DNA of 64,000 nucleotides from Actinomycetota bacterium (lineage in GTDB: Bacteria; Actinomycetota; UBA4738; HRBIN12), in assembly GCA_035691205.1 (NCBI GenBank), contig DASSJM010000017.1, positions 9,481 through 73,480 of the forward strand. Direction: 5' to 3'. The notes beneath the pieces were generated by a model. That model saw only the letters and a program-made list of their open reading frames with translations. It did not search any database and was not told where the DNA came from. Positions 13,356 to 54,196 of the stretch are shown piece after piece. Numbering within the stretch: the stretch's first letter is position 1; each line of letters begins with the position of its first letter. Made by a program: the position numbers and the translations under genes.

Positions 13356-15071
13356 ATGTCCCCCCGACGCTGGTTCGCGCTGCTCGCCGTCCTGCTCGTG
13401 CTGGGCGCAGCATGCACCGACGGAGGCTCGAGCGACGTCGCGTCGGGCCCGTCCCCGACCGGGAGGGAGACGGGGACCGCCGCCACGACCTCCGAGCCCT
13501 CGGAGGCAGCCGAGCCGGTCGCCGAGGGCGCGATGGCCGACCTCGCCTGCTCGTTGCCTCACGAGTGGCTCCTGAGGACCTGGCGCGGGAACCGCGACGA
13601 TCGCAGCGCCGAGCTGCAGATCCTGCCGATCGAGCCGAACTTCGTGGGCTCGGGGCTCCCGCACGTGGGGCCCTGGGACTACGCGCAGGACATCCCGATG
13701 TTCTGGTACGGGCCCGGCCACATCGCGCCCGCCGGCGTCGTGAACCGGCCGGTCACCCTCGCCGGCGTCGCCCCGACGCAGGCCGAGCTCCTGGGCTTCT
13801 CCTTCCGCACCCGGGACGGCACCCCGATGCGCGAGGCCGTGGCCGGGAACGCGACCCCGCCCCGGCTCGTCGTGACGATGATCTGGGACGCGGCCGGCCG
13901 CAACGTGCTCGATCGGTGGCCCGACGACTGGCCGTACCTCGCATCGCTGATCGAGAGCGGGGCCTGGTACGAGCGCGCGACGGTGGGCACGAGCCCGACG
14001 AGCACCGCGCAGACGCACGCGACGATCGGCACCGGCACGTTCCCCGACGACCACGGCATCGTGGCGCACCGGATGCGCATCGGCGAGGTGCTGTCCACGC
14101 CGTGGGCCCAGGGCCCCGCGTACCTGATCGACCCGACGCTGGCCGATCTGTACGACGTGGCCCACGGCAACGAGCCGGTGGTCGGCGAGCTGGGGACCGT
14201 GAGTATCCACCTCGGGATGCTCGGTCACGGCTCGATGTGGGGCGGGGGCGACGAGGACATCGCGGTGATCCGCGAGAAGGTCGGGGCCGAGACGCTCGGC
14301 GAGGAGGGGTTCGAGTGGAACCTCACCCCGCTGCTCCAGCCCTACTACCGGTTCCCGGACTACATCAACGAGGTGGGCGGGTTCGAGGAGGACGTGCGGG
14401 AGGTCGACGCAGCCGACGGGCAGCTGGACGGGAAGTGGCGCGAGAACGACATCGAGGCGCTGTTGCAGGGGTTCGACACGCCGGCGCGGATCCCGTACCA
14501 GACGAGGGTGCTGAAGGAGATGATCTCGCGCGAGGGCTTCGGCGCGGACGACGTCCCCGACCTGTTGTTCGTGAACTACAAGATGATCGACTACATCAGC
14601 CACGTGTGGACCGTGAACAGCCCCGAGATGCAGGACGCCGTGCGGGCCCAGGACGAGGCGCTCGAGGACCTGGTCACGTTCCTGGACCGGGAGGTCGGGG
14701 AGGGCGAGTGGGTGTTCGCGCTCACCGCCGATCACGGCTCGATCCCCGACCCCGACCTGACCGGCGCGTTCCAGATCTCGGCCACCCCGATCGTGAACGG
14801 CATCAACGCGACCTTCGACACCGACGGGGATGGCGCCAAGCTGGTAGAGCTGGTCCAGCCGACGCAGATCTTCGTGAACGAGCGCGAGCTCCGGCAGGAC
14901 GGCCACACGCTCGAGGAGCTCGCCGACTGGATCATGGGGTTGACGAAGGCGGACACGGCTCAGCCGGGCGTCGTCGTCCCGGCCGAGGAGGCCGACGACC
15001 TCGTGTTCCAGGCGGCCTTCCCCTCGGCGATCATGAACGACCTCGCATGCCTGCCGGAGGCACGGGGGTGA
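13356..15071 (+). CDS. Alkaline-phosphatase-superfamily lipoprotein, nucleotide pyrophosphatase/phosphodiesterase-like (paralog 1)
   Basis: Lipobox LLVLGAAC. LVVTMIWDAAG. ATVGTSPTSTAQTHATIGTGTFPDDHGIVAH (NPP catalytic-Thr and metal-site blocks). ALTADHGS. C-terminal LACLPEARG. Start at internal ATG 13356. Confidence 0.85.
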   Translation: MSPRRWFALLAVLLVLGAACTDGGSSDVASGPSPTGRETGTAATTSEPSEAAEPVAEGAMADLACSLPHEWLLRTWRGNRDDRSAELQILPIEPNFVGSGLPHVGPWDYAQDIPMFWYGPGHIAPAGVVNRPVTLAGVAPTQAELLGFSFRTRDGTPMREAVAGNATPPRLVVTMIWDAAGRNVLDRWPDDWPYLASLIESGAWYERATVGTSPTSTAQTHATIGTGTFPDDHGIVAHRMRIGEVLSTPWAQGPAYLIDPTLADLYDVAHGNEPVVGELGTVSIHLGMLGHGSMWGGGDEDIAVIREKVGAETLGEEGFEWNLTPLLQPYYRFPDYINEVGGFEEDVREVDAADGQLDGKWRENDIEALLQGFDTPARIPYQTRVLKEMISREGFGADDVPDLLFVNYKMIDYISHVWTVNSPEMQDAVRAQDEALEDLVTFLDREVGEGEWVFALTADHGSIPDPDLTGAFQISATPIVNGINATFDTDGDGAKLVELVQPTQIFVNERELRQDGHTLEELADWIMGLTKADTAQPGVVVPAEEADDLVFQAAFPSAIMNDLACLPEARG

Positions 15072-16759
15072 GGTTGGCGGCGCCGCTGCTGGCGCTCGGT
15101 CTGCTCGCCGCCGCCTGCACCTCCGATGCCACGGAATCACCGTCGGCGACGGGGGACGCGGTCGCGACGGGCTCGACGGGCCCGACGGGTGGAGGGGAGA
15201 TCGCCCCGCCGGCCCCCGGGGAGCTCGCCGACGCGGCGTGCGCGATCCCCCACGAGCAGCTCCTCCGCGTCTGGCGTGGGACCGATCCCGAGCGCTCGGG
15301 CCAGATCGTGTTCGTCCCGGCCGAGCCGAACTTCGTGGGCACCAACTTCCCGCATTCGGGGCCGTGGGACTACCTTCAGGACGTGCCGCTGTTCTGGTAC
15401 GGCCCGGGCGTCGTCCCCGCGCTCGGTCGCGTAGACACCCCCGCGACGATCGCGGACATCGCTCCGACGCAGGCGCGGCTGCTGGACTTCGACTTCGAGG
15501 CACCCGACGGTCGGGCGCTGGACGAGATCCCGCCCCCGAAGACGCCCCCCCGTCTCATCGTCACGCTGGTGTGGGACGCGGGCGGCATCGGTGTGCTCGA
15601 CGCGTTCCCCGACGACTGGCCGGTGCTCGGCTCCCTGATCGAGGACGGCGTCTGGTACGAGGACGCGAGCGTCGGCTCGAGCCCGTCGATCACGCCGGCG
15701 ACGCACGCCACGATCGGCGCGGGAGCTTTCCCGCTGCACACGGGGCAGACCGACGCGGAGTTCCGGATCGGCGACGAGCTGGTCCGCGCCGGCGCGCTCG
15801 GGCCGGTGCTCATGATGGAGCCGACGCTCGGCGATCTGTACGACCGCGCGATGGACAACGAGCCCCTCGTCGGCGCCCTCGCGAGCGTTACGTGGCACCT
15901 GAACATGGCGAGCCACGGGGGGCTGTGGGGCGGCGGCGACAAGGACATCGCGGTGCTGCGCGTCCCAGCGGAGGCCGACAACGAGGGCGCCGAGGGCACC
16001 GTCTGGAACCTCCAGGGCCGGTACCTGCCGTTCTACGAGTTCCCCGAGTACGTCAACGACCTGCCGCCGCTGTCCTCGTACACGGAGGAGGTCGACCGGG
16101 AGGACGGCGCGCTCGACGGCCGCTGGCGGGACAACTCGATCGAGCAGTACGAGGAGGGCTGGGCTACGCCGGCCCGCATCCCGTACCAGGGCCGGATGGT
16201 CGAGGAGGTGATCGCCCGAGAGGGGTTCGGCGACGACGACGTGCCGGACCTGCTGTTCGTGAACTTCAAGGCGATCGACCACGTGAGCCACATCTGGAGC
16301 GTGAACAGCCCCGAGATGGCGGACACCCTCCGTTGGCAGGACCGCGACCTCGAGAGTTTCGTGGGGTTCCTCGATCGCGAGGTCGGGCGCGGTCGATGGG
16401 TGTTGGTCCTGACCGCCGACCACGGGGCGCAGTACGACCCGGCCGTCTCCGGCGCCTTCCAGGTGACCCCCCGTGAGCTCGAGGACGACCTGAACGCCGC
16501 GTTCCCCTCGGAGACCGGCGGGTCGGTCTTCCTCGCCGTGCGCACGAGCCAGATCTACGTGAACGAGGACACGATGCGCGCGAGCGGGTACTCGCTGGAG
16601 CAGATCGCGCGGTTCGTCCTCGGGTACACGAAGGGGCAGGGCCATCCCGAGGGCCCCGAGGCCGTCCCCGGGGAGGAGCGCGACGACCGCGTGTTCGCCG
16701 CCGCGCTCCCGATCCGCCAGCTGGACCGCCTGGAGTGCCTCCCGGAGGCTCGCGGATGA
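15047..16759 (+). CDS. Alkaline-phosphatase-superfamily lipoprotein (paralog 2)
   Basis: Lipobox LLAAAC. LIVTLVWDAGG. VGSSPSITPATHATIGAGAFPLHTGQ. LTADHGAQ. C-terminal LECLPEARG. Start is ATG 15047 or GTG 15068; the GTG overlaps the stop of paralog 1 (GTGA). Confidence 0.85.
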   Translation: MPAGGTGVRLAAPLLALGLLAAACTSDATESPSATGDAVATGSTGPTGGGEIAPPAPGELADAACAIPHEQLLRVWRGTDPERSGQIVFVPAEPNFVGTNFPHSGPWDYLQDVPLFWYGPGVVPALGRVDTPATIADIAPTQARLLDFDFEAPDGRALDEIPPPKTPPRLIVTLVWDAGGIGVLDAFPDDWPVLGSLIEDGVWYEDASVGSSPSITPATHATIGAGAFPLHTGQTDAEFRIGDELVRAGALGPVLMMEPTLGDLYDRAMDNEPLVGALASVTWHLNMASHGGLWGGGDKDIAVLRVPAEADNEGAEGTVWNLQGRYLPFYEFPEYVNDLPPLSSYTEEVDREDGALDGRWRDNSIEQYEEGWATPARIPYQGRMVEEVIAREGFGDDDVPDLLFVNFKAIDHVSHIWSVNSPEMADTLRWQDRDLESFVGFLDREVGRGRWVLVLTADHGAQYDPAVSGAFQVTPRELEDDLNAAFPSETGGSVFLAVRTSQIYVNEDTMRASGYSLEQIARFVLGYTKGQGHPEGPEAVPGEERDDRVFAAALPIRQLDRLECLPEARG

Positions 16760-18417
16760 GTCGGCGCCTGGCCGCCGCGCTGCTCGCGCTCGGTCTGCTG
16801 GGGGCGTCCTGCATCGCCCCGGACGCCGAGCAGGGGACGGCCGGCGGGGTCACGGGCGACCGGGCGTCGCTGAAGCGGTTGATCCGTCGTGCGTGCGCGG
16901 AGGTGCCGCACGACGCGCTGCTGCGCACGTGGCGGGGCACGCGCCTGGACCGTAGCGGCGACATCCAGATCATCCCCTTCGAGCCCGACTTCGTGAACGG
17001 CGGGCTCACCCACGCCACGCCGTTCGACCACACGCAGGAGGTGCCGCTCCTGCTGTTCGGGTCCGGGATCCGCCCCGGCGTCTACCCGGAGCCGGTCACG
17101 CTGGCGGACGTCGCGCCGACGCTCGGCGCGGTGCTCGACTTCCCGTTCGAGACGCCGGACGGTCACGCGCAGCTACAGGCCTTGTTGCCGGAGGACCGGC
17201 GCGAGCCTCCGCGACTGGTGGTCACGCTGGTCTGGGATTCGGCGGGCGACAACGTGCTGGAGCGGTGGCCCGAGGCCTGGCCGACCCTGCGGGCGATGGC
17301 CGAGGAGGGAGCGTGGTTCACCGACGCGCAGGTCGGCGCGTCGCCCTCGAACACGCCGACCGGCCATGCCACGATCGGGACGGGCAGGTTCCCCAATCAC
17401 AACGGGTTCGTCGACGAGTACATCCGGGTGAACGGGATGCTCCAGAAGCCCAACGAGAACGGGCCGGGGTTCCTGCTCGACCCCACCCTCGCCGACCTGT
17501 ACGACCGCGCGATGGGCAACGAGCCGAAGGTGGCAGCGATCGCCACGCTCGCGGCTCACGTCATGATGATGGGCCACGGCTCGCAGTGGGTCGGCGGCGA
17601 CCGAGACATCGCGGTCACCCGCGAGAACGAGTCCGGTCCCACGGCCGGCGCCGAGAGCACCTCGTGGAACCTCACCAGCGACATGTCGTCCTTCTACGTC
17701 CTGCCCGCGTACGCGAACGAGCTCGCGCCACTGGAGGACTACCTGGACGAGGTCGACCGCGCGGACGGCGCGCGGGACGGGATGTGGCGCGAGCACGCGT
17801 TCGCGCAGTACGCGGAGGGGTTCGACACACCGGCCAGGACGCCGTACCAGCAAGCGCTCGTCGAGGAGGTGATGCGGCGCGAGGAGCTCGGCGCCGACCG
17901 GGTTCCGGACCTCCTGTTCGTGAACTACAAGGCGATCGACACGATCGGGCACCTGTTCAGCGCCGACGGCATCGAGATGTCCGACGCGGTCCGCACGCAG
18001 GACGACGCCCTCGCCTCGTTCGTTGCGTTCCTGGATGAGACGGTCGGCCGCGGCCGGTGGACGATGGCCGTCGTGGCCGACCACGGCACCCAGGACGACC
18101 CCCGGGTCTCGGGCGCGTTCTCGATCGACATCCGCAAGCTCGAGGAGGGGCTCGCCGCCCGGTTCGACGACGACGGCGACGACGCCGTGCTGGTCAAGAA
18201 GGTGCGGCCCACCCAGATCTGGCTGAACCACGACGAGCTCGAGGACAACGGCCTGAAGCTCGCGGACATCACCGGCTGGCTCTTCCGGCTCAGCCAGGCG
18301 GAGGTCGTGAAGCCGGGGCGCACGCCGCCCGAGCCCCAGGCGCCGGTGTTCGCGGGCGTCCTGCCGTCTCGTATCCTTTCCGGACTCCCGTGCCTGCCCG
18401 AGGCCAGCGCGGGCTGA
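16756..18417 (+). CDS. Alkaline-phosphatase-superfamily lipoprotein (paralog 3)
   Basis: ATG 16756 overlaps the stop of paralog 2 (ATGA). Lipobox LLGASC. LVVTLVWDSAG. VGASPSNTPTGHATIGTGRFPNHNGF. VVADHGTQ. C-terminal LPCLPEASAG. Confidence 0.85.
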   Translation: MSRRLAAALLALGLLGASCIAPDAEQGTAGGVTGDRASLKRLIRRACAEVPHDALLRTWRGTRLDRSGDIQIIPFEPDFVNGGLTHATPFDHTQEVPLLLFGSGIRPGVYPEPVTLADVAPTLGAVLDFPFETPDGHAQLQALLPEDRREPPRLVVTLVWDSAGDNVLERWPEAWPTLRAMAEEGAWFTDAQVGASPSNTPTGHATIGTGRFPNHNGFVDEYIRVNGMLQKPNENGPGFLLDPTLADLYDRAMGNEPKVAAIATLAAHVMMMGHGSQWVGGDRDIAVTRENESGPTAGAESTSWNLTSDMSSFYVLPAYANELAPLEDYLDEVDRADGARDGMWREHAFAQYAEGFDTPARTPYQQALVEEVMRREELGADRVPDLLFVNYKAIDTIGHLFSADGIEMSDAVRTQDDALASFVAFLDETVGRGRWTMAVVADHGTQDDPRVSGAFSIDIRKLEEGLAARFDDDGDDAVLVKKVRPTQIWLNHDELEDNGLKLADITGWLFRLSQAEVVKPGRTPPEPQAPVFAGVLPSRILSGLPCLPEASAG

Positions 18418-27504: not shown

Positions 27505-29433
27505 CTACGCGGCAAGGACGACCGCGAGCGCCGTGATCGCGATGTAGATCGCGAGCCCGCCGGCCACCAGCATCACCCGCAGCGAGCGCTGGATCGGCGA
27601 CCGGCCGAACGCGTAGTAGGCGATGGGACCGAACAGCGGCACGACAATCACGACCAGCATCCACAGCACGCGTGTGCGGTTGGGCACCGCGTCCTGGCGC
27701 ACGAGGTCCCACAAGGCGATCGAGATCCACGCGGAGTACAGGATCAGCGGCAGCGCGTAGGCGTACAGGCCGAGCAGGATCCCGAAGAACCCGGTGGCGA
27801 GCGGTATCCCGAGCACGGTGACCTCCTGGGAGACGTCGGACGACGCGGGCACGTCGAGCGTGCGGGCGTCGCGGATCTGGATCCGGTGCGGAACGCCGGT
27901 TTCGGCGATCGCGGGCGAGGGCGGCGCGTCCTCGGCGCCGGGCATGTTCTCCTGTGGCGGGGGCGGGGGCTGCGAGCGCCAGTCGCCGGTCTCCACGTCG
28001 CCGAGCGCCGCGTGCAGGTACCGCTCGAGCGGACCGAAGACCGCGCCGAGGGAGCCGCCGGGGACCTTCGCGAGCGGTGAGTCGCATCCGGCGCGCCACT
28101 CGATCGCCGCCGGCAGGCTCGTCGAGAAGTCGTTCCCGGCGAAGCAGTCTCCTCCCGCGGTCGGCGCGCCGAGCAGGAGGTCGGCGTCGCCGGAGCCCCG
28201 GACGACGTTGTCGCGGATCTCGTTCCCCTCGGTCAGCCACAGGTTCTCGTCGGGCGAGGGCAGGAGCGCGATGCCGAAGTTCACGTGATCCTCGACGAGG
28301 TTCTGGGTGACCACGTTGTCGCGCCCGCCGTTGACGATGATCCCGGTGCCGAGCGACGGGTACTGCAGGTCGTAGGCGGGCGCACCCTCGTTGTTGTTGT
28401 CGTGGACCCAGTTCCCCGCGATCACCATGCCGTGCTGCGGCGCGAGCTCCTCGGAGTCGAGCGTGTTGGGCACGATCCCGCTCATGTTGTTCCGCCACTC
28501 CGAGTTGACGACGAACATCTGCCCGCCGGCGTTGGTGCCGCTGAAGCCGAGCGCGTTGTTCTCGGCGAGCACGTGGGTCACCACCGAGTGGCACGGGAAG
28601 CATTGGCCGACGTAGAACCCCGAGTCCGGGTGCCCGCTCGCGTAGGAGTGGTCGAACTGACCGTAGACCGAGTCGTACGCGAAGAGGCCGTAGTCCCCGT
28701 TGTTGAACGCGGTGAGGTAGGAGCCGCGGTAGCCGAACACGCTCGACCAGTAGAACCCGTTGAGCAGGTAGTGGCGCGCGGTGAGGTTCTCGATCGCGAC
28801 GCCGTCGGCCTCGATCACCTGGATGCCGTTGTCGAGCGTGAACCCGCCCTCCAGGATCGTCTCGTTGCGGTCCAGGCCCCGGATCGTGAGGAACGGCGTC
28901 GTGACGAGCACGGCCTCCTCATACACGCCGGGGGAGATGAGCACGATGCCGCCGGGCTCGGCCGCGTCGACGGCCGCTTGGATCGTCGGCGCGTCCTGCG
29001 GGACCCGGATCTCGTCGCCGGGGAGCCCGGGCGGGACCTCGCGGCCGGGCCCGACCTCGCCTGCACCGCCCGGCAGCGACGCGTCGCCGACCAGGACGAC
29101 ACCGACCATCCCGATCCCAGGGGCCCCGTGGAGCGTGCAGTGGTACGGGAAGGCGCCCTCTGCGTCGAAGGTATGCCCGAACCCCTCATCGGGTCCGAGG
29201 TCCTCCGACGCGAAGGACCCGTCGTCGGCGGTGATGTTGTGCAGGGTTCGTCCGTCGTTGGTCCATTCGATCTCGCCGCCGACCGGGATACGGACGACCC
29301 TCGGGTCGAACACGTTGTCGATCGCGGAGACACCCTCAGAACCATCGTCGGAGGTGCCCCGGGCGGGCGCGGCGGGAAGTGCCAGCGCGAGGAGGACCGA
29401 GAGAGCGAGGGCGGCGCGCAGGCGGGGGCGCAT
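27505..29433 (-). CDS. Fusion protein: signal peptide, type-1-copper cupredoxin domain, right-handed beta-helix (NosD/PbH1-like) domain and a C-terminal PLDc_N-type membrane anchor
   Basis: Start MRPRLRAALALSVLLALALPAAPA at ATG 29433. Cu site LHNITAD...YHCTLHGAPGIGMVGVV (H/C/H/M). PbH1-like repeats (NNMSGIV, GNWVHDNN, VTQNLVEDHVNFGIAL). C-terminal 2TM with WMLVVIVVPLFGPIAYYAFGR (PLDc_N motif). Confidence 0.8.
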   Translation of the reverse strand: MRPRLRAALALSVLLALALPAAPARGTSDDGSEGVSAIDNVFDPRVVRIPVGGEIEWTNDGRTLHNITADDGSFASEDLGPDEGFGHTFDAEGAFPYHCTLHGAPGIGMVGVVLVGDASLPGGAGEVGPGREVPPGLPGDEIRVPQDAPTIQAAVDAAEPGGIVLISPGVYEEAVLVTTPFLTIRGLDRNETILEGGFTLDNGIQVIEADGVAIENLTARHYLLNGFYWSSVFGYRGSYLTAFNNGDYGLFAYDSVYGQFDHSYASGHPDSGFYVGQCFPCHSVVTHVLAENNALGFSGTNAGGQMFVVNSEWRNNMSGIVPNTLDSEELAPQHGMVIAGNWVHDNNNEGAPAYDLQYPSLGTGIIVNGGRDNVVTQNLVEDHVNFGIALLPSPDENLWLTEGNEIRDNVVRGSGDADLLLGAPTAGGDCFAGNDFSTSLPAAIEWRAGCDSPLAKVPGGSLGAVFGPLERYLHAALGDVETGDWRSQPPPPPQENMPGAEDAPPSPAIAETGVPHRIQIRDARTLDVPASSDVSQEVTVLGIPLATGFFGILLGLYAYALPLILYSAWISIALWDLVRQDAVPNRTRVLWMLVVIVVPLFGPIAYYAFGRSPIQRSLRVMLVAGGLAIYIAITALAVVLAA

Positions 29434-29493
29434 CGCGGCCGAGGCTAGCACCCGTGCACGACCCGACCGTGGAGCGGGTACCGTGGGTACGCC

Positions 29494-30888
29494 ATGCCGA
29501 CCGAACGCTTCACCGCCCTGGACGCCTCGTTCCTGTACCTGGAGAGGCCCGCGATGCACATGCATGTGGCCGGGCTCTCGGTGTTCGATCCCTCGACGCG
29601 CCCGCGCGGGCCGCTGCGGTTCGAGGACGTGGCGAACGTCTTCGCCACGCGGTTGCACCTCGCGCCGCGCCTGCGACAGAAGGTCAAGACCGTGCCCTTC
29701 GGGCTCGGGTTGCCGGTCTGGGTCGACGACGCGGCGTTCGACCTTGGTTTCCACGTCCGCAGGGCGGCGCTGCCCTCGCCGGGCGGCCGACGCGAGCTCG
29801 CCGAGCAGGTCCAGCGCGTGCTCTCGCGCCCGCTCGATCGCTCCAAGCCCCTGTGGGAGCTCTACGTGATCGAGGGCCTCGAGGACGGCCACGTGGCCAC
29901 GCTCATGAAGGTCCACCACGCGATGATCGACGGCCTGTCGGGGATGCACCTCACGGCCGCGATGTTCGACCTGTCGCGCGAGCCGCGCGACGAACCGCCG
30001 CCGCCAGCGTGGGAGCCGGCGCCGGAACCCACGCCCCAGGACCTGCTGCGCGAGGCGTCCGAGGACCTCGTGACGCACCCCGCGCAGGCCCTCGCCCAGG
30101 CGTTCGAGGCGGTCCGGCGGACGCCCGCGCTCGCGGCCCTGGGTCTCGGCGCGGTGCTCTCGGGGTTCCGCAGCATCCTGGACATGGGCGCCCGTCCGGC
30201 CTCGCCGCTCGATGTGCGGATCGGACCCAACCGCCGGTTCGCGATGACCGATGCCCCGCTGCAGCGCTTCAAGGACATCAAGGACTCGCTCGGAGGTACG
30301 GTGAACGACGTCGTCCTGACGGTCGTCGGCGGGGCCCTGCACCGACTGCTGAAGGAGCGGAAGGAGCCGACCAAGGGGCGCACGCTCAGGGTCATGGTGC
30401 CGGTGTCGGTGCGCTCGGGCGGCGACGGTCCGCTCGGCAACCGCGTCGCGCCGGCGTTCATCGACCTGCCGGTCGGTCCCCTCGGGCCCAAGCGCCGGCT
30501 CGCCCTCGTCCGTGAGGGGACGCGCCACCTCAAGGAGTCGATGATGGCCATGAGCGCGGACACGATCATCGGACTGGGCGCGTACGCGCCGGGCGGGCTC
30601 CTCGCCGGGGCGGCGCGGTTGGCCAGCCGGGGGCCGTGGTTCAACCTCACGGTCTCCAACATCCCGGGTCCGCCCCAGCCCCTGTACATGGCCGGCGCCC
30701 GGCTGGTGGCCCAGTATCCGGCGATCCCGCTGGGTGAGAACTCGGCGCTATCGATCGCGTGTACCTCGCTCGGCGGGACGATGGCGTTCGGGCTGACCGG
30801 CGACTGGGACGGCATCCCGGACCTGGAGCGCCTCGCGTTCGCCCTGGACGAGTCCCTCGCCGAGATCTCGAAGGCCGCCGGCCTCTAG
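29494..30888 (+). CDS. Wax ester synthase/diacylglycerol acyltransferase (WS/DGAT)
   Basis: HHAMIDGLSG (HHxxxDG active site). 464 aa. Confidence 0.9.
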   Translation: MPTERFTALDASFLYLERPAMHMHVAGLSVFDPSTRPRGPLRFEDVANVFATRLHLAPRLRQKVKTVPFGLGLPVWVDDAAFDLGFHVRRAALPSPGGRRELAEQVQRVLSRPLDRSKPLWELYVIEGLEDGHVATLMKVHHAMIDGLSGMHLTAAMFDLSREPRDEPPPPAWEPAPEPTPQDLLREASEDLVTHPAQALAQAFEAVRRTPALAALGLGAVLSGFRSILDMGARPASPLDVRIGPNRRFAMTDAPLQRFKDIKDSLGGTVNDVVLTVVGGALHRLLKERKEPTKGRTLRVMVPVSVRSGGDGPLGNRVAPAFIDLPVGPLGPKRRLALVREGTRHLKESMMAMSADTIIGLGAYAPGGLLAGAARLASRGPWFNLTVSNIPGPPQPLYMAGARLVAQYPAIPLGENSALSIACTSLGGTMAFGLTGDWDGIPDLERLAFALDESLAEISKAAGL

Positions 30889-31796
30889 GCGGGCAGGCGG
30901 TCCAGCCACTCCCGGGCGGCCACGAGCCAGCGCTCCGGCGCCTCCATCTGCGGGACGTGGCCGACGCCCGGCAGCACGCAGAGGTCCCACCAGGGGTGCG
31001 AACGGACGGCGGCGCGCGCGTATCCGATGGGGACCAGGCGATCCTGGTCGCCGTGGATCGCGAGCACCGGCGCCTCGATCCCGTCCAGGATCCACCGGGT
31101 GATCTCGGGGCGACGGCGGAGCGACATCAGCGAGCGCGCGGCCTCGAGGAAGGCCGCCCCGGCGTCGGGGTTCCGTTGGTGGCGGACGAGCTGCTCGACG
31201 TGCAGCCGGACGAGGTCCTCGGGGATCGTCGAGGGATCGGCGGCGATGATCCGCAGGCCGAGCTCGACGGCGCGCTCGGCCTCGAGGCGCGTGATCCGCT
31301 GATGGGCGGCCCACTCGCCGACTCTGGGCACCTGGTAGAGGGCGAACCCCGCGACCACGATCGGAGCGGGGAGGTGTCCCCGGGCGTAGGGGAAGACCGA
31401 GTTCGACAGGATCAGACCCTGGACCGAGTCCGGCTCGAGCGCGGCCTGGAGCATCGCGATCGCCCCGCCCATCGAGTTCCCGGCGAGCACCACCGGCCCC
31501 CCGCCCGCGACCCCGCTTACGAACCGCGACACGAGCGCGCGCTGATCGGTCAGGCGGCTGCGGTGGCCGTCGCGGCTCGTTCGGCCGAACCCGTACAGGT
31601 CCATCGCGAGGACCCGCCCGTGCCGAGCGAGCTCGGGGGCGACCAGCAGCCACGAGAGGAGCGAGCCGCCGAGCCCGTGGACCAGCACGAACGTCCGCTC
31701 CGCGGGTCCATCCCACTCCACGTAGTGGACGGGTCCGTCTAGATCGGCGAACCGGCTCGGCGGCACCGCGATCGGCTGATGCATCGGCTCCATCAT
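30885..31796 (-). CDS. Alpha/beta hydrolase
   Basis: Start MMEPMHQP at 31796. VLVHGLGGS. GNSMGG nucleophile elbow. The ORF-track 817-aa extension was rejected. Confidence 0.85.
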   Translation of the reverse strand: MMEPMHQPIAVPPSRFADLDGPVHYVEWDGPAERTFVLVHGLGGSLLSWLLVAPELARHGRVLAMDLYGFGRTSRDGHRSRLTDQRALVSRFVSGVAGGGPVVLAGNSMGGAIAMLQAALEPDSVQGLILSNSVFPYARGHLPAPIVVAGFALYQVPRVGEWAAHQRITRLEAERAVELGLRIIAADPSTIPEDLVRLHVEQLVRHQRNPDAGAAFLEAARSLMSLRRRPEITRWILDGIEAPVLAIHGDQDRLVPIGYARAAVRSHPWWDLCVLPGVGHVPQMEAPERWLVAAREWLDRLPA

Positions 31797-31871
31797 CCGA
31801 CCTCGGCGATCGGGTCGACCAGGGCAAGGCTCCGCAAGCCCGCATCGCGCGCCCTGGCTAGACTCCGACCC

Positions 31872-33197
31872 ATGGTCACCGTTCGGCTGCGGCCGCCGCT
31901 CCGCGAGCGCGCCGAGGGTCTGGGGGAGGTCCGGGTTCCGGGGACGACGGTCGCGGAGGCCCTGCGGGCGCTCGAGGCCGATCACCCTCGTCTGGCGGGG
32001 TGGGTGCTCGACGACCGCGGCCGCATCCGCGAGCACGTAGCGGTCTTCCTGGATGGCGAGCGCGTGAGCGGCGACGAGGCGGTCGCCGGCGACGACCGCC
32101 TGGAGATCGTCGGCGCCGTGTCCGGCGGGAGCGATGAGGCCGAGGTGCTCGTCGGGACCAAGAAGGGCCTCTTCGTGCTGCGCGGGCCGCGCGGCGGCGC
32201 GCTTCGGATCGCGACCCGGGCCTTCGCGGGCCAGTCGGTGGAGTTCGCGATCCGCGATCCGCGCACCGGGCGGTACCTCGCCAGCGTGACCCACGGGCAG
32301 TTCGGCCCTCGGGTGTTCTGGACCGAGGACCCGGCGGGGGAGTGGGAGCAGACCGATGGCCCGCGCTTCCCCGAGGACACGGATGCCAGCGTCGAGCGCA
32401 TCTGGGTCATCACGCCCGGCGAGGCCGAGGATCTCGTCTACGCCGGGGTGGACCCCGCCGCGCTCTTCGAGAGCCGAGACGGAGGGATGACGTGGGAGCT
32501 GAACCGGGGATTGTGGGACCAGCCGAGCAGGTCCGAGTGGATCCCGGGTCTGGGCGGCCTGATGGTCCACTCGATCTGCCCCTGGCCGGGCGACCCCAGC
32601 CGCCTCGCGGTCGGGATCTCCGCGGTCGGCGTATGGGTGACCGAGGATGGTGGCGCGACCTGGGTGGTGGGCAACGAGGGGATCGTGCCGCGCTACCTGC
32701 CCGAGGAGGCGCGTTCGCAGCCGCTCGGCCGGTGCATCCACCACCTCGAGCGCGCACCGCTCCGCCCGGAGCGCGTCTTCATGCAGTTCCACGGAGGCGT
32801 GTACCGGTCCGACGACGCCGGGATGACGTGGACGAGCATCGCGGAGGGCCTCCCCAGCGACTTCGGGTTCCCGCTGGTCGTGGACCCTAGGGATCCGGAC
32901 TCCGCCTACGTGATCCCGTTGAACGCCGACGCGGACCGCGTCTCGGCCGAGGGGCGCCTGCGCGTCTTCGAAACCCGCGATGCCGGTGGCACCTGGACGG
33001 CGCGTTCCGAGGGGCTTCCGCAGTCCGACGCGTACCTGACGATCCTGCGGCAGGCGTTCGGCGCAGACGCGCGGGACCCGATGGCGCTGTGGTTCGGGGC
33101 GACCTCCGGCGAGGTGTATGGCTCCGACGACGCCGGCGCCACGTGGCACCTGGCGGCCCGTGACCTGGCGCCCGTGCTGTCCGTCCGCCCGAGCTGA
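31872..33197 (+). CDS. Fusion: MoaD/ThiS-like beta-grasp domain ending in Gly-Gly, joined in frame to a BNR/Asp-box beta-propeller (sialidase-like or Ycf48-like)
   Basis: N-terminal 85 aa MVTVRLRPPLRERAEGLGEVRVPGTTVAEALRALEADHPRLAGWVLDD...DRLEIVGAVSGG. Six SxDxGxTW-like repeats follow (SRDGGMTWEL, TEDGGATWVV, RSDDAGMTWTSI, TRDAGGTWTA, GSDDAGATWHL). One continuous frame. Confidence 0.8.
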   Translation: MVTVRLRPPLRERAEGLGEVRVPGTTVAEALRALEADHPRLAGWVLDDRGRIREHVAVFLDGERVSGDEAVAGDDRLEIVGAVSGGSDEAEVLVGTKKGLFVLRGPRGGALRIATRAFAGQSVEFAIRDPRTGRYLASVTHGQFGPRVFWTEDPAGEWEQTDGPRFPEDTDASVERIWVITPGEAEDLVYAGVDPAALFESRDGGMTWELNRGLWDQPSRSEWIPGLGGLMVHSICPWPGDPSRLAVGISAVGVWVTEDGGATWVVGNEGIVPRYLPEEARSQPLGRCIHHLERAPLRPERVFMQFHGGVYRSDDAGMTWTSIAEGLPSDFGFPLVVDPRDPDSAYVIPLNADADRVSAEGRLRVFETRDAGGTWTARSEGLPQSDAYLTILRQAFGADARDPMALWFGATSGEVYGSDDAGATWHLAARDLAPVLSVRPS

Positions 33198-33462
33198 ATC
33201 CAGCCCGCGTGCGTCGCCAACCGTGAGGGCGACCCCGGGACAGGTGCTCTGACCTGGCCCGATATGGGAATACGGGGCATCTTCACGGTGTCTCAACACG
33301 TGAGGCCCTTTACAGGAGCAGCGGACTGCATCTACCATGGGTCCCCGGAGGCCCGGGGAGGCCGGTTTCTGTGCGTCCCGGCCCTGTTCGTCGAGATGGT
33401 CCCGAAGACCTCAGAGGGGCGAAGCGCGCTCCACGGAGGCTTCGAGGAGGAGAGTGAAGTTC

Positions 33463-34451: not shown

Positions 34452-36179
34452 ATGCCCGGGTACGATGCGCGCGTGTCCGGCGATCCGCTCCTGATCGAGA
34501 CGATCCGTTCCTCGGTGATCGGGGAGGACGAGGCCGTCGAGGGGCCGTTCGGCCTCCGGCGCGTGACGTATGCGGACTACACGGCCTCGGGCCGCTCCCT
34601 GGCCTTCATCGAGGACTTCATCCGCGAGGCCGTCCTGCCCCTGTACGCGAACACGCACACCGAGTCGAGCGGGACGGGGCGCCAGACCACGCGCTTCCGC
34701 GAGGACGCGCGGCGCCTGATCCGGGACGCCGTCGGGGGCACCGACGAGCACGTCGTGATCTTCTGTGGTTCGGGCTCGACGGGGGCGATCGACAAGATGA
34801 TCGACTGCCTGAACCTCCGCCTGCCCGCCGATCTCGACGATCGGTTCGGACTCCTCGAGCGGATCCCGGCCGCCGAGCGGCCGGTGGTGTTCATCGGGCC
34901 GTACGAGCATCACTCCAACGAGCTCCCGTGGCGCGAGTCGATCGCCGAGCTCGTCACGATCCCCGAGGACGCCGACGGCCGGATCGACCTCGAGTCGCTC
35001 GAGCGCGAGCTGCACGCGCACGCCGACCGGTCCGTGAAGATCGGCTCGTTCTCGGCCGCCTCCAACGTGACGGGGATCCTCAGCGACACCCGCGCGATCT
35101 CGGCGATGCTCCACCGGCACGGGGCCCTGTCGTTCTGGGACTTCGCGGCGGCGGCGCCCTACGTCCAGATCGAGATGGCGCCGCACCGCGACGGCGACCC
35201 GCTCGATCACCTGGACGCGGTGTTCATCTCGCCCCACAAGTTCATCGGAGGCCCGGGGACGCCGGGGGTGCTGGTGGCGCGCCGCGATCTCTTCCACAAC
35301 CGCGTCCCGAGCGTCCCGGGGGGCGGCACGGTGGAGTACGTGAACCCGACCGAGCACGTGTACCTCTCGGATGTCGAGCACCGCGAGGAGGGTGGGACGC
35401 CGGACATCGTCGGCTCGATCCGCGCCGGGCTCGTGTTCCAGCTGAAGGAGGCGGTAGGGACCGACACGATCCGTGAACGCGAGGAGTCCTTCACGCACCG
35501 GGCGATGCACCGGTGGCAGGAGAACCCGAACATCGAGATCCTGGGCAGCCACGACCTTCCGCGGCTGTCGATCGTCTCGTTCGTGGTTCGGCATGCCGGA
35601 CGGTACCTGCACCACAACTTCGTCGTCGCGCTCTTGAACGACCTGTTCGGGATCCAGTCGCGGGGCGGATGCTCGTGCGCGGGGCCGTACGGACACCGGC
35701 TCCTGGGGATCGACCTCGACACCTCCCATGAGTTCGAGCGCGAGATCGCGCGCGGGTGTGAGGGCATCAAGCCCGGCTGGGTCCGCGTGAACTTCAACTA
35801 CTTCATCTCGGAGGCGGTGTTCGACTTCGTGCTCGACGCCGTGGACCTGGTCGCGACGGACGGGTGGCGGCTCCTGCCCTGGTACCGGTTCGACCCTGCC
35901 AGCGCGATGTGGCGCCACGCCGAGGGCCTCGGCGAGCCGCCGCTCGGCCTGTCCGACGTGCGGTACGAGGACGGGACGATGGCCTTCGCTCACCGGCGCC
36001 ACCAGGAGCCCGGATCGCGCCTCGCCTCCTACCTGACCGAGGCCCGGGCCCTGCTGGCGGACCCGCCGGCCGCGCCGGCGTTCGAGCCGCTCACGGGGCC
36101 GGTCGGTCCCGACTTCGAGACCCTCCGGTGGTTCTGGCTCCCGAGCGATGTCGCCACGCCGAGCGCCCGGGCAGGCTGA
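34452..36179 (+). CDS. Aminotransferase class V-fold PLP-dependent enzyme (cysteine desulfurase-like)
   Basis: 575 aa. PLP-lysine block FISPHKFIGGPGTPG. GSGSTGAID. Confidence 0.85.
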   Translation: MPGYDARVSGDPLLIETIRSSVIGEDEAVEGPFGLRRVTYADYTASGRSLAFIEDFIREAVLPLYANTHTESSGTGRQTTRFREDARRLIRDAVGGTDEHVVIFCGSGSTGAIDKMIDCLNLRLPADLDDRFGLLERIPAAERPVVFIGPYEHHSNELPWRESIAELVTIPEDADGRIDLESLERELHAHADRSVKIGSFSAASNVTGILSDTRAISAMLHRHGALSFWDFAAAAPYVQIEMAPHRDGDPLDHLDAVFISPHKFIGGPGTPGVLVARRDLFHNRVPSVPGGGTVEYVNPTEHVYLSDVEHREEGGTPDIVGSIRAGLVFQLKEAVGTDTIREREESFTHRAMHRWQENPNIEILGSHDLPRLSIVSFVVRHAGRYLHHNFVVALLNDLFGIQSRGGCSCAGPYGHRLLGIDLDTSHEFEREIARGCEGIKPGWVRVNFNYFISEAVFDFVLDAVDLVATDGWRLLPWYRFDPASAMWRHAEGLGEPPLGLSDVRYEDGTMAFAHRRHQEPGSRLASYLTEARALLADPPAAPAFEPLTGPVGPDFETLRWFWLPSDVATPSARAG

Positions 36180-49485: not shown

Positions 49486-50559
49486 ATGGAGGAGGTCGCG
49501 CGGATCGTGCTGGCGCTCGAGGCACCGGACGTCGTCGAGGAGGTCATGCACTTCCTCGACCGCACCGGCCGGGCCCGCGTCGTCGGCACCGCGGTCGACG
49601 GGTCGCAGCTCGCGGACGCGGTCCGGCAGCTCGAGCCCGACGCGGTGGTCGCCTCGCCGGCGCTCGTTGGCTCGCGTGAGGCGCTGAACGGGAGCGCGCT
49701 CCTCGCCCTGGACACCTCGCAGTCGGTCGGCTCGCTCCGCCGTGCCATCCGGGCCGGAGCCAGCGGCTTCTACCTGTGGCCCGCCGAGCGCGAGGAGCTC
49801 GCGCTCGCCGCGGCGCGCGTGCGGCCTCAGTCGGAGCAGGCTGCCGGCGAGCGCGCCCCGGTGCTCGCGGTCTACGCGCCCCGAGGGGGTGCCGGTGCGA
49901 CCTTCATCGCGACGCATCTCGCCGCCGCGTACGCGCGACGCGAGACGCGGTGCGTCCTCGTGGACCTCGACGTCGTGTTCGCCGACGCGTCGGCCGCCGT
50001 CGGGATCCGGGACGACGAGGAGGTTCGAACGGTCGCCGACCTGCGAGCCCTGGCCGACGAGGTCGCGCCGCGCCACGTCGAGGAGATCGCGTGGCGTCAT
50101 CCCGTCGGGTTCGACGTCCTCCTCGCGCCGGGCACGAACGATGGTCGGGTCAGCGGCGACGACTACCGGCGCGCGATCGGCGCCGCCCGGCGAACGTGCG
50201 ACGTGGTGGTGCTCCACGTGCCGCGGGCGCTCGACGAGGTCGCGAGGGCGGGGCTCGAGATCGCGGACCTGGTGCTGATGGTGCTCGGCCTCGACGTGCT
50301 GTCGTTCCGCGACGCCAAGCGAGCGATCGAGGCCGCCGGGCTCGACGGACGTTGCGCGTTCGTCGTCGATCGCACGGCGCGTTCGGAGATCACCCCCGGC
50401 GACGTGAAACGCGTGTTCGGGCAGGAGCCGCTCGCGGTGATCCCATCGGACCACGGCGTTCGGGCGGCGCAGGACCGAGGCGAGCTGCTCCCCGCGCGCG
50501 GTCGGGTCGGGCGAGCCGTGGATCGGCTGGCTCGAACCGCGATCGAGGTGGCGAGGTGA
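49486..50559 (+). CDS. Flp pilus assembly protein CpaE/TadZ-like (receiver-like N-domain plus MinD/ParA-type ATPase)
   Basis: VLAVYAPRGGAGATFIATHLA (deviant Walker A). Start ATG 49486 (MEEVARIV) after ggagcaggg. Alternative GTG at 49450. Confidence 0.8.
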   Translation: MEEVARIVLALEAPDVVEEVMHFLDRTGRARVVGTAVDGSQLADAVRQLEPDAVVASPALVGSREALNGSALLALDTSQSVGSLRRAIRAGASGFYLWPAEREELALAAARVRPQSEQAAGERAPVLAVYAPRGGAGATFIATHLAAAYARRETRCVLVDLDVVFADASAAVGIRDDEEVRTVADLRALADEVAPRHVEEIAWRHPVGFDVLLAPGTNDGRVSGDDYRRAIGAARRTCDVVVLHVPRALDEVARAGLEIADLVLMVLGLDVLSFRDAKRAIEAAGLDGRCAFVVDRTARSEITPGDVKRVFGQEPLAVIPSDHGVRAAQDRGELLPARGRVGRAVDRLARTAIEVAR

Positions 50560-51839
50560 GCCGCAGGGACGCGCTCGCCGAGGTCCGGCGCGGGCTCCAC
50601 CAGCGCCTGCTCGGCAGGGTCGACGCCCAGGCGCTCGAGGGCGTACCTCGGGCGGAGCGACGGCTCCGCGTCCGCGAGGAGGCGCTCGCGGTGCTCCGCG
50701 AGCAGGGGCACATCCTGCCGCAAGGTGCGCTCGCCAAGGTCGTGAACGAGGTTTCGGATGCGGTCGTCGGGCTGGGACCGATCGAGTTCCTGCTCAAGGA
50801 CCCCGACGTCACCGAGGTGATGGTGAACGGGCCCGACGACGTCTACGTGGAGCGGAAGGGGCGGATCGAGAGGGTGGAGGACCGTCTGTTTGAGGGGGAG
50901 GAGGCGGTCCTCCACGTGATCGAACGTATCGTGGCACCGCTGGGTCTTCGGGTCGACGCAACGTCACCTTGGGTGGACGCGCGACTGCCGGATGGCTCTC
51001 GGGTGCACGCGATCGTCCCGCCCCTTTCGCTCTGCGGTCCCGTGCTCAACGTGCGGACCTTCGCGTCGATCCCCCTCGGGCCGGAGGCGCTGCTCGCCGG
51101 CGGAACCCTCGGGCCGCGGATGCTCGCCTTCCTCGCGGCGTGCGTGCGGGGTCGGGCCAACGTGGTGATCTCGGGCGGGACGAGCTCAGGCAAGACGACG
51201 CTGCTCGGGGTGCTCTCGTCCTTCATCCCGGACGGGGAGCGGCTCATCACGATCGAGGATGCCGCCGAGCTCCGCCTGGGCAAGCCGCACGTGATCGGGC
51301 TCGAGGCCCGGCCGGCGAGCGCCGAGGGGCGTGGCGAGGTGACCGTGCGGGACCTGGTGCGGAACGCGCTCCGGATGCGGCCCGACCGGATCATCGTCGG
51401 CGAGGTCCGCGGAGGAGAGGCGCTCGACATGCTGCAGGCGATGAACACGGGTCACGATGGCTCGCTCTCGACCGCGCATGCGAACTCGGCACGCCACTCG
51501 CTGTGGCGACTGGAGACGATGGCGCTGATGTCGGACGTCGACCTGCCCGTCGCCCATATCCGCGCGCAGGTGGCATCGGCGATCGACGTCGTCGTGCACA
51601 CCGCACGCCTGCGGGATGGCCGTCGCGTGGTGTTCCAGATCGCGAGCGTCGAGGGGCTGGACGACGAAGGGGATCCCCTGGTCACGGAGGTATTCGGGTT
51701 CCGCCCCCGGTTCGGTCGGCACGGTGCGTTCGTGTGCTCGGGCGTGGTGCCTGCGGTGGCCCGACTCCTTCGGGAGCGCGGGGCCGTCCTGGAAGACGAC
51801 GCGTTCGTGCCGGGCATCGACGGGTCGGAGGCAGCGTGA
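50556..51839 (+). CDS. Tad/CpaF secretion ATPase (TadA)
   Basis: Walker A GGTSSGKTT. Walker B/Asp box RIIVGEVRGGEA. His box TGHDGSLSTAHAN. GTGA overlap with cpaE. Confidence 0.9.
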   Translation: MSRRDALAEVRRGLHQRLLGRVDAQALEGVPRAERRLRVREEALAVLREQGHILPQGALAKVVNEVSDAVVGLGPIEFLLKDPDVTEVMVNGPDDVYVERKGRIERVEDRLFEGEEAVLHVIERIVAPLGLRVDATSPWVDARLPDGSRVHAIVPPLSLCGPVLNVRTFASIPLGPEALLAGGTLGPRMLAFLAACVRGRANVVISGGTSSGKTTLLGVLSSFIPDGERLITIEDAAELRLGKPHVIGLEARPASAEGRGEVTVRDLVRNALRMRPDRIIVGEVRGGEALDMLQAMNTGHDGSLSTAHANSARHSLWRLETMALMSDVDLPVAHIRAQVASAIDVVVHTARLRDGRRVVFQIASVEGLDDEGDPLVTEVFGFRPRFGRHGAFVCSGVVPAVARLLRERGAVLEDDAFVPGIDGSEAA

Positions 51840-52666
51840 TCGGGCTCCTTGGCGCCGCCGCACTCTCTGCGTTCGCCTTCGTGTCGCTTGCCTTGGCGCT
51901 CCAGGCCGCGGACCGACGCGGGGTGCTCGAGCGAGCGGGATGGATGCCGGTGGCGAGCGGCGGCTTCCCCCGGGTGCCCGTGAGGGCCGACGCCCTGATC
52001 GTGCCCGCCGTGGTCCTCGCGTGGATCGCAGGTGTGCGGATCGGAGGCGTCGTCCTCGGGCTCGCAGCCGCCGTCGCCGTGGCGGTGGTGCCGTGGCTCG
52101 GGCGGCGGCGCCGCGACGCCGCGCGCGATCGAGCCGCGCAGGAGCAGCTCGCCGAGGGCGTCGGCGTGATCGCCTCGGGCCTCCGCTCGGGGCTGTCCCT
52201 CGCTCGGTCCATCGAGCTCGCCTCCGGGGAGCTCGCACCACCGCTCGGTCCGTCGTTCCGCCGGGCCGCAGATCGGATCGCGCTCGGTGAACCCCTCGAG
52301 GCGGCGATCGACTCATGGGCGGTCGAGGTCGGCGGTCCCGACGTCCGGGTCACGGCCGGCGTCCTGCGGCTCCATCGAAGGACCGGCGGCGGGCTGGCCA
52401 CGGCGCTGGACGGCCTCGCCTCGACCCTTCGAGCCCGCCGGAGCGCCGCCCGGGAGCTCCGGTCGCTCACCGCGCAGGCGCGCCTGTCCGCCACGATCCT
52501 CGGCCTGCTGCCGATCGGGTTCTTCGTCTTCCTGTCGGTCGTCGCGCGCGAGGATCTACGGCTCGCGTTCGGAACACCGGTCGGCTCGGGCGCCGTGATC
52601 CTCGGGTTCACGCTGCAGGCGCTCGCCTATCTGTGGATCCGCCACCTGCTCAGGGTCGAGCCGTGA
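51836..52666 (+). CDS. Type II secretion system F-family protein TadB
   Basis: GTGA-coupled. Polytopic. GspF-like repeats. Confidence 0.8.
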   Translation: MIGLLGAAALSAFAFVSLALALQAADRRGVLERAGWMPVASGGFPRVPVRADALIVPAVVLAWIAGVRIGGVVLGLAAAVAVAVVPWLGRRRRDAARDRAAQEQLAEGVGVIASGLRSGLSLARSIELASGELAPPLGPSFRRAADRIALGEPLEAAIDSWAVEVGGPDVRVTAGVLRLHRRTGGGLATALDGLASTLRARRSAARELRSLTAQARLSATILGLLPIGFFVFLSVVAREDLRLAFGTPVGSGAVILGFTLQALAYLWIRHLLRVEP

Positions 52667-53490: not shown

Positions 53491-53506
53491 GAGGAGGTGC
53501 ACCGAG

Positions 53507-53737: not shown

Positions 53738-53760
53738 TGGGGTGCTGGCGAGCGCTGGGG

Positions 53761-54141: not shown

Positions 54142-54196
54142 GGCGGCATCCTGGCACGCCGTGGCTTGCGGGGCAAACCGGCAGGGCCCCTCGCCC

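Follow-up and report, generated by a model that had tools for sequence, protein, structure and literature searches.

Ubiquitin-like proteins (Ubls) of the ThiS/MoaD type are the prokaryotic roots of ubiquitin, and each known one serves a defined partner enzyme (such as ThiG, MoaE, CysM, or a tRNA thiolase). Here we describe a gene from a 64,000-nucleotide stretch of DNA of an Actinomycetota bacterium (GenBank assembly GCA_035691205.1, contig DASSJM010000017.1, positions 9,481 to 73,480; hereafter the window, the numbering of which is used for all coordinates unless another locus is named), in which a Ubl domain of this type, ending in Gly-Gly (GG), continues in frame into an Asp-box (BNR) beta-propeller. 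The closest described architectures are MoaX of Mycobacterium tuberculosis and the MoaD-MoaE fusion of Deinococcus radiodurans, in which a MoaD-type Ubl precedes its partner in one open reading frame (ORF) with GG at the junction, and of which split versions are known. MoaX must be cut between Gly82 and Ser83, its uncut form being inactive (PMC4326299), and the D. radiodurans MoaD-MoaE fusion is cleaved by DRJAMM (PMC8832034). MoaX is also actinobacterial, and its junction (GG|S) is that of the window protein. The partner of the MoaX-type Ubl is, however, MoaE, whereas here it is a seven-bladed Asp-box propeller with no match to MoaE, and no link to the molybdenum cofactor was found.

Further precedents for a ThiS/MoaD-type Ubl that is fused to, or encoded beside, the enzyme it serves are ThiS-ThiG and the fusion of ThiS to sulfite reductase, the latter described by Iyer, Burroughs and Aravind in 2006 (PMC1779556). 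A propeller, BNR or sialidase partner has 0 occurrences in that paper, and comprehensive prokaryotic Ubl surveys are likewise silent. At the level of the single domain, SAMP1 of Haloferax volcanii (3PO0, 2L83, 4HRO) and CysO of M. tuberculosis share with the window Ubl the size of the beta-grasp and a terminal VSGG. The window Ubl is unlike them in having a family motif of its own (LDDxGxxRxHV/LxxF), which is kept from Actinomycetota to Proteobacteria, and in not being linked to E1, JAMM, or CysM genes. The propeller belongs to the family of PDB entry 3B7F (Reut_B4987, YP_299179.1, from Cupriavidus pinatubonensis JMP134), a structural-genomics target labeled 'putative glycosyl hydrolase with BNR repeats', in which H233, H290, Q305, and H307 of the window protein are kept; 3B7F differs in that it has no Ubl domain and has Asp at the position of Cys288. 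The 3B7F propeller has seven blades and five Asp-boxes, and its function is listed as 'not known' (PMC2716378). The present analysis finds that a Ubl of this type and a seven-bladed Asp-box propeller recur as a conserved pair over a wide phylogenetic range.

A natural fusion of a conserved two-gene pair

The gene and its main parts are the following.

31872..33197, plus strand: whole fused gene (Ubl, linker, and propeller), 441 codons and a stop; identical to NCBI protein P0001
31872..32129, plus strand: ThiS/MoaD/SAMP1-type beta-grasp (Ubl) domain, residues 1-86; PF02597 at 34.2 bits, SAMP1 (3PO0) at E 7e-7
32121..32129, plus strand: S84-G85-G86, the Ubl tail; the point where split orthologs end and where cleavage, after G86, is predicted here; no variation in 117 fused sequences
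32130..32144, plus strand: linker S87-D-E-A-E91, relic of an old stop, an intergenic codon, and the propeller start codon; aligned codon for codon with L018, SGG*DMTQLLVGTKKG
32145..33194, plus strand: seven-bladed Asp-box beta-propeller of the 3B7F family, residues 92-441; 3B7F at E 3e-55, Foldseek TM 0.87

The fused gene is real and conserved. Its ATG was also the start chosen for ORF 31872-33197 by a frame-aware GC log-odds gene caller, and alignment with homologs pins the start of the 441-aa protein through a conserved N-terminus, M-x-x-V-R-L-R-P-P-L-R. An entry at NCBI, 'MoaD/ThiS family protein [Actinomycetota bacterium]' (P0001), has the same length and 100% identity to the window protein. 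Moreover, nearly all of the top 120 database matches (at least 71% identity; from JGI, ENA, Logan, and NCBI), which represent independent assemblies with short-read ones among them, are ~440 aa long, and the majority of these are annotated with both domains. The GC content at third codon positions (GC3) is 0.91 against 0.92 on either side of the junction between Ubl and propeller.

An assembly or sequencing artefact, that is, a stop codon lost or an indel introduced, has to be considered here, since the source is a metagenome-assembled genome (MAG), some related MAGs are indel-prone long-read assemblies, and the junction appears damaged at two loci (L047 and L087). Yet the 120 best matches from the four databases show the same fused architecture, the linkers of homologs stay in frame while differing among themselves, GC3 is equal on both sides of the junction, and the identical protein was deposited independently at NCBI, such that the chance of an artefact appears negligible. 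The original prediction, made from the letters of the window, had proposed that an 85-aa sulfur-carrier or Ubl-like N-terminus ending in VGAVSGG is fused in frame to a BNR propeller. The fusion was borne out by the 441-aa ORF, the 3B7F match (E 3e-55), and the fused homologs; no frameshift or missing stop between the domains was evident from homologs or GC3, and the beta-grasp match is significant (PF02597). The assigned domain type likewise stands (PF02597 at 34.2 bits and SAMP1 3PO0), although the domain is 86 residues long, not 85.

A scan of one genome per species gave 593 relatives, of which we kept 80 loci, mostly from Actinomycetota MAGs (Thermoleophilia, Solirubrobacterales, and Gaiellales) with some from Acidobacteriota, that were classified by ORF calling, clustering, and tblastn frame analysis. 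The module is split in ~50 of these loci, fused in ~28, and represented by the propeller only in two (L078 and L085). As the original prediction had proposed to check, orthologs in two genes thus exist: ~50 of the 80 related genomes have a free-standing Ubl, mostly with a GG-stop end, beside a separate propeller gene. Specifically, an ~86-aa Ubl gene is followed in the split loci, mostly at a gap of -4 to +7 nt, by a ~355-aa propeller gene that starts MTELLVGTKKGLF (opening MTELLVGTKKG), and this second gene is usually translationally coupled to the first.

In eleven split loci both parts lie in one frame, with a single stop codon between them. Residues S87-D88-E89-A90 of the window protein align codon for codon with the stop-Asp-Met-Thr of one split ortholog (L018), a match which indicates that the fusion was born by loss of the stop codon. 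In a neighbour-joining tree of the propeller domains, fused forms are spread over several deep branches and split forms, a few isolated cases aside, fall into a single large clade, a pattern indicating that the two states have interconverted more than once. We conclude that the window gene is almost certainly a natural fusion, through stop loss, of a conserved two-gene pair of Ubl and propeller.

The Ubl domain and its Gly-Gly tail

The Pfam ThiS profile (PF02597) scores 34.2 bits over residues 23-86, above its gathering cut-off of 22.5, and its last position coincides with G86. Haloferax SAMP1 (3PO0, E 7e-7) is the nearest solved relative, with an alignment that runs to the shared terminal VSGG, and CysO (3DWG chain C) aligns with the Ubl over its full length (E 0.024). 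The best NCBIfam model is also that of SAMP1 (NF041918, an equivalog), which covers residues 3-86 at 47.6 bits, under its cut-off of 60; on these scores the domain resembles SAMP1 and is not a member of the SAMP1 family. In an AlphaFold2 (AF2) model, strands at residues 2-5 and 19-22, a helix at 27-37, and strands at 56-60, 63-65, and 76-81 make up a beta-grasp fold, and the predicted local distance difference test score (pLDDT) is 87-95 across residues 1-80. The score falls below 50 for residues 82-86, the sole low-confidence internal segment of the model, and this tail is predicted to be flexible.

An alignment of 117 sequences, in which the Ubl domain is strongly conserved, shows no variation at S84, G85, or G86. 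The tail reads [ST]GG in split Ubls and [AS]GG in distant ones, with two exceptions that have no GG, and [AST]GG is kept in all but 2 of the ~200 Ubl sequences examined, across phyla. The GG that is internal in the window protein is the true C-terminus in most split orthologs. Split Ubls end exactly at [ST]GG-stop in 36 of 50 cases, with 1-3 extra residues in 13 of 50 (GGER, GGR, GGE, GGAEA, and others), and aberrantly in one of 50. Behind the GG, the linkers of fused homologs differ in sequence and span anything from 3 to about 25 residues, and two homologs have a ~21-residue low-complexity insert directly after it, which places a domain boundary exactly there.

The residue that follows the GG also bears on how such a chain might be cut. 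Self-cleavage at GG|S through N-to-O acyl-shift autoproteolysis at Ser87, for which no separate protease would be needed, would be in keeping with the Ser that follows GG in both the window protein and MoaX, and with the lack of a linked protease gene. However, the obligatory Ser/Thr/Cys nucleophile is not conserved, the residue after GG in fused homologs being Ala at least as often as Ser, and Asp, Glu, or Asn in others, and we consider autoproteolysis very improbable.

The propeller and a candidate pocket

The following elements of the propeller are referred to below; conservation was counted over 133 diverse propellers that included fused, Ubl-adjacent, and Ubl-less members.

32181..32204, plus strand: degenerate Asp-box, blade 1 (RGPRGGAL)
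32322..32345, plus strand: degenerate Asp-box, blade 2 (TEDPAGEW)
32472..32495, plus strand: Asp-box, blade 3 (SRDGGMTW)
32640..32663, plus strand: Asp-box, blade 4 (TEDGGATW)
32808..32831, plus strand: Asp-box, blade 5 (SDDAGMTW)
32973..32996, plus strand: Asp-box, blade 6 (TRDAGGTW)
33123..33146, plus strand: Asp-box, blade 7 (SDDAGATW)
32568..32570, plus strand: H233, candidate pocket residue, start of the inner strand of blade 4; H in 131/133, N in 2/133
32733..32741, plus strand: C288-I-H290, Cys and His invariant, start of the inner strand of blade 5; in 3B7F, Asp at the Cys position, His kept
32784..32792, plus strand: Q305-F-H307, Gln and His invariant, turn between strands 2 and 3 of blade 5; both kept in 3B7F
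32937..32939, plus strand: R356, conserved in 132/133, long loop between strands 2 and 3 of blade 6
33048..33050, plus strand: R393, invariant, inner strand of blade 7

In sequence comparison, residues 6-352 of the C-terminal 355 aa match 3B7F (here under the name 'glycosyl hydrolase, BNR repeat') with an E of 3e-55. The AF2 model of the fused protein (pLDDT 88.8; predicted template modeling score, pTM, 0.77) was matched to the same structure by Foldseek with a TM of 0.87, an rmsd of 2.2 A, 34% identity, and an E of 2.9e-30, and Pfam BNR and Sortilin-Vps10 profiles match the propeller above threshold. Seven Asp-box-type repeats start at residues 104, 151, 201, 257, 313, 368, and 418, at a spacing of 47-56, and five of them are canonical. 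The six blades of the original prediction therefore have to be replaced by seven, as in the seven-bladed 3B7F.

The next best structural matches came from other Asp-box propellers, namely GH74 xyloglucanases, Ycf48/HCF136, the Streptomyces dispase autolysis-inducing protein, and sortilin Vps10, with E 1e-9 to 1e-14 and 13-17% identity. GH74 enzymes require two tandem propellers and sortilin has ten blades, and to our knowledge none of these four is known to pair with a Ubl. The labels under which members of the family appear in databases ('exo-alpha-sialidase', 'glycosyl hydrolase', and 'PSII assembly factor-like') are doubtful, as they fail on blade number, domain count, or score. Specifically, we rejected a GH33 exo-alpha-sialidase, the label that the split propeller gene carries in many databases, because there is no match to PF13088 (BNR_2) at E <= 1, the blades number seven and not six, and the top structural matches are not sialidases. 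A GH74 xyloglucanase was rejected because the protein has a single 350-aa propeller, to which the 700-780-aa chains of GH74 enzymes align with 13-17% identity and a TMt of ~0.3, and the Ycf48/HCF136 label, used at JGI, because PF14870 scores 20.2 against 27 and NF010237 scores 10.2 against 326.

Residues C288, H290, Q305, H307, and R393 are invariant in the 133 propellers, as are structural Gly and Trp residues. On the AF2 strand map, these five residues, H233, and R356 lie where inner strands begin or in the loops between strands 2 and 3, in blades 4-7, and the His, Cys, and Arg residues among them may form a pocket on the face opposite the Asp-boxes. That face is the active-site face of Asp-box glycosidases (PMC2716378). 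Residues 89-96 appear in the model as strand 2 of blade 1, the closing blade, which would attach the Ubl on the Asp-box face via ~4 residues, and by this topology an uncut GG tail would be out of reach of the conserved pocket.

Propellers of the 3B7F family also occur with other N-terminal partners: P0127 (704 aa) has one fused to a Ser/Thr protein kinase domain, recognized by eye from its motifs, and P0158 (539 aa) has one with an unrelated N-terminal extension. These fusions suggest that the propeller may serve as a sensor or binding module elsewhere.

Distribution of the pair

A representative database search returned 546 clusters at E <= 1e-30, mostly of proteins that have the propeller alone (345-380 aa, 35-45% identity); deeper fused forms (P0121 and P0124) retain SGG. 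For a distant propeller subfamily (~40% identity), we searched the flanks of 80 metagenome loci with a hidden Markov model of the Ubl and found a GG-ending Ubl near 36 of the 80 propellers. In 35 cases it was adjacent and on the same strand (22 upstream and 13 downstream), and in one it was far off on the opposite strand, while the flanks of 11 of the 80 loci were too short to judge. These distant Ubls end exactly at GG in 26 of 36 cases, and some extend 12-59 residues past it.

An annotated 'MoaD/ThiS family protein' stands directly before an 'exo-alpha-sialidase' in Ralstonia solanacearum, where the Ubl ends in ...VIQALSGG and the pair of strain GMI1000 lies on the megaplasmid at about 1.666 Mb, in Burkholderia, and in Pseudomonas aeruginosa, and Cupriavidus metallidurans CH34 also has the Ubl-propeller pair. 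The P. aeruginosa pair adjoins pmpM and would presumably be PA1355/PA1356, a numbering that we counted from pmpM (PA1361). The P. aeruginosa locus (L172, pZYPA1927, NZ_CP133752.1), which has pmpM, rhtA, and the pair, is listed as a plasmid, and its content resembles a PAO1-type chromosome. The propeller is alone in one Streptomyces and one Rhodobacter. In the latter (L170, Rhodobacter sp. CZR27 plasmid NZ_CP023549.1, 1583-5110), the propeller-only homolog, annotated as 'sialidase family protein', is divergent from egtB-egtD, genes of the biosynthesis of ergothioneine, a thiol-histidine, a placement that may either hint at a link to sulfur metabolism or be coincidental.

Across the loci examined, the Ubl is the only conserved neighbour of the propeller. 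The module is widespread and apparently unstudied: full-text literature searches returned no functional study of 3B7F, of the MoaD/ThiS-propeller pair, or of PA1355/PA1356. Its presence in P. aeruginosa and R. solanacearum makes the question of what it does open to direct genetics.

Function of the pair

Recurrent fusion is Rosetta-stone evidence that two proteins act together, and translational coupling together with fusion points to a 1:1 stoichiometry, as in carrier/synthase pairs. The reading that we favor, with a probability that we put at roughly 0.45, is that of a carrier with its cognate enzyme, in which the fused form would be a MoaX-like precursor. Specifically, Ubl and propeller would act as a 1:1 pair like MoaD-MoaE, ThiS-ThiG, and CysO-CysM, and the fused 441-aa chain would be cleaved behind Gly86 (GG|S) by a peptidase acting in trans, probably a JAMM-type one, as in MoaX and the D. 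radiodurans fusion. The Gly-Gly carboxylate would be activated by an E1-like enzyme (MoeB/MoeZ type) encoded elsewhere and most likely be turned into a thiocarboxylate, and the propeller would be the dedicated acceptor enzyme, making use of the conserved His/Cys/Arg pocket opposite the Asp-boxes.

Activation is supported by the placement of the Ubl nearest to SAMP1 and CysO, which are GG-activated, and the predicted flexibility of the tail is in keeping with activation and cleavage. Three further observations lean towards release of the Ubl: the combination of an invariant GG with freely varying next residues in the fused proteins, the exact stop at GG in most split forms, and the cut at GG|S in MoaX, likewise actinobacterial. 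The original prediction had left the choice between proteolytic release and an N-terminal targeting or regulatory domain; the evidence leans to release without deciding the matter, and targeting has found no support.

If the propeller does use the activated GG tail, this would be a new Ubl-dependent reaction, and the fused forms would join MoaX as a second family of bacterial Ubl precursors dependent on a GG-specific peptidase. A bolder form of this proposal, which we put forward as speculative, is that 3B7F-family propellers constitute an unrecognised class of Ubl-dependent enzymes, and hence a new partner beside ThiG, MoaE, CysM, and the tRNA thiolases. Such an enzyme would take the GG tail, as thiocarboxylate or acyl-adenylate, in its His/Cys/Arg pocket and make a sulfur-containing or Ubl-linked product, and the pathway would range from soil Actinomycetota as far as P. 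aeruginosa and R. solanacearum.

Several findings weigh against the carrier reading, and part of them would be expected if the Ubl were instead never cleaved. Under the latter explanation it would remain tethered as a permanent, non-covalent subunit or domain of the propeller, acting in stability, regulation, or docking, the GG would be a hinge or contact motif the carboxylate of which is never activated, and fused and split forms would be equivalent. TmoB in toluene monooxygenase and the integral Ubl domains of eukaryotic proteins offer analogies. The fused lineages are deep and diverse, such that the tethered state has been stable over long evolutionary times, and fused and split forms interconvert freely, both lasting in deep lineages. 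Moreover, many linkers are very short (3-5 residues), and the pTM of 0.77 fits a fixed two-domain arrangement. Extra residues past the GG, 1-3 of them in 13 of 50 split Ubls and 12-59 in some distant ones, point the same way, as do the two Ubls without GG. One of these, on a metagenome contig (L004, 5716-5991), lies beside a propeller and ends in '...IIPAVARG-stop'; the other is a Ubl-like ORF downstream of a propeller in Nonomuraea gerenzanensis (L173, 6099-6389), which ends in '...VYVLPALA-stop'.

Linked genes for the proposed steps are also lacking, which again fits a tethered Ubl, although linkage of ThiS/MoaD carriers to an E1 (ThiF/MoeB), a sulfurtransferase, or a JAMM protein is frequent without being obligatory. 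None for an E1, a JAMM protein, a rhodanese, or a cysteine synthase is conserved within 3-6 kb of the propeller in ~170 loci, and none was found in the window by Pfam on 18 of its proteins (a part of its genes), by motif regexes on 62 called genes, and by reading of the translations, in agreement with the original prediction, which had seen no JAMM protease, E1, or Cys synthase there. Among the distant propellers, 33 of 80 have no Ubl despite adequate flanks, and about half are without an adjacent one; across the 133 propellers no residue separates Ubl-linked from Ubl-less members. The clustering of the candidate pocket was read from strand positions, not from coordinates. Finally, we know of no beta-propeller that uses a thiocarboxylate, and cleavage, adenylation, and thiocarboxylation of the window Ubl are steps that we infer, by analogy, and do not observe.

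Against a permanently tethered Ubl stands the tail itself. The motif [AST]GG is near-universal, present in all but 2 of ~200 Ubls, whereas non-activated beta-grasp subunits (TmoB, RnfH, and YukD) generally have no C-terminal GG. Split forms, in addition, stop exactly at the GG in 36 of 50 and 26 of 36 cases, and in the fused proteins constraint ends sharply at G86, which is the mark of a processed or activated tail and not of a hinge. We regard a tethered Ubl as the main rival of the carrier reading, and as less probable than it.

The resemblance to SAMP1 raises another alternative. SAMP1 is a protein modifier and also a sulfur carrier, and the window Ubl could be a modifier of the SAMP or ubiquitin kind, with its GG conjugated to lysines of targets and the propeller as the main target, as a recognition or scaffold factor, or as a processing or deconjugating enzyme that acts through the invariant Cys-His. 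Both the nearest solved relative and the best NCBIfam model are SAMP1, the GG terminus is conserved, and Cys288 and His290, both invariant, could be a thiol-type catalytic pair. However, the SAMP1 model stays below its cut-off (47.6 against 60), and linked E1, E2, and JAMM genes are missing, unlike in known bacterial Ubl-conjugation operons. Furthermore, tight 1:1 coupling or fusion to one protein is unexpected for a general modifier, and we know of no propeller with E2, E3, or deubiquitinase activity. A modifier role is accordingly a poor prospect, well behind that of a tethered Ubl.

Neighboring genes and other features of the window

A Ubl-conjugation anti-phage system (Bil or CBASS-type) was rejected, there being no PADLOC match and no linked E1 or JAMM. 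We also rejected an ABC ATPase, a PPOX-like protein, an aldehyde dehydrogenase, NadA/B/C, a sigma factor, and WS/DGAT as pathway neighbours, since their association with the module is lineage-specific synteny only. For NadA (quinolinate synthase), the gene lies 1-3 genes from the propeller in two very distant lineages, represented by L002/L005 (4498-7077) and by Thermoleophilia loci such as L048 (7426-9188), and the Thermoleophilia loci have NadC and NadB near the propeller as well. The orientations differ, so that these genes do not make up a single operon.

Two genes downstream of the fused gene, at 34452-36179 (plus strand), a 575-aa class-V aminotransferase (PF00266) has an SPHK pyridoxal-phosphate-lysine motif, a CSCAGPYG motif, and a cysteine-desulfurase-like fold, and is probably unrelated. 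It was rejected as a sulfur donor because, among the loci examined, it occurs in this window only and is missing from the syntenic locus L001. The conserved upstream block at 27505-30888, which is also in L001, contains a 642-aa cupredoxin/beta-helix/PLDc_N protein (minus strand) together with a wax-ester synthase of the WS/DGAT type (plus strand); it reflects synteny of the lineage and does not belong to the module.

Upstream, the fused gene shares its intergenic region with a divergent gene.

31797..31871, no strand: divergent intergenic region, 75 bp, presumed promoter region, common to the fused gene and the alpha/beta-hydrolase gene at 30885-31796 (minus strand)

Neither a sigma-70 consensus nor a terminator was found in these 75 bp. 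An 817-aa ORF at 30885-33338 (minus strand), antisense to the entire fused gene, was dismissed as a high-GC artefact with which the frame-aware caller disagrees. Its real part is the C-terminal 303 aa only (30885-31796, minus strand), an alpha/beta hydrolase (Abhydrolase_1/Hydrolase_4) divergent from the Ubl-propeller gene.

Farther away, a 191-aa protein encoded at 4888-5463 (minus strand) matches SLATT_4, a 2TM effector domain associated with SMODS/SLOG, at 24.6 bits, short of the cut-off of 27. Three tandem paralogous genes at 13356-18417 (plus strand) encode proteins of ~550-570 aa with lipoprotein-like N-termini and common motifs (e.g., ...HE.LLRTWRG...). Finally, the region at 49486-54963 (plus strand) appears by eye to be a Tad/Flp-type pilus cluster, with a CpaE-like ATPase, a CpaF-like secretion ATPase, two TadB/C-like membrane proteins, a small Flp-like protein, and TadE-like proteins.

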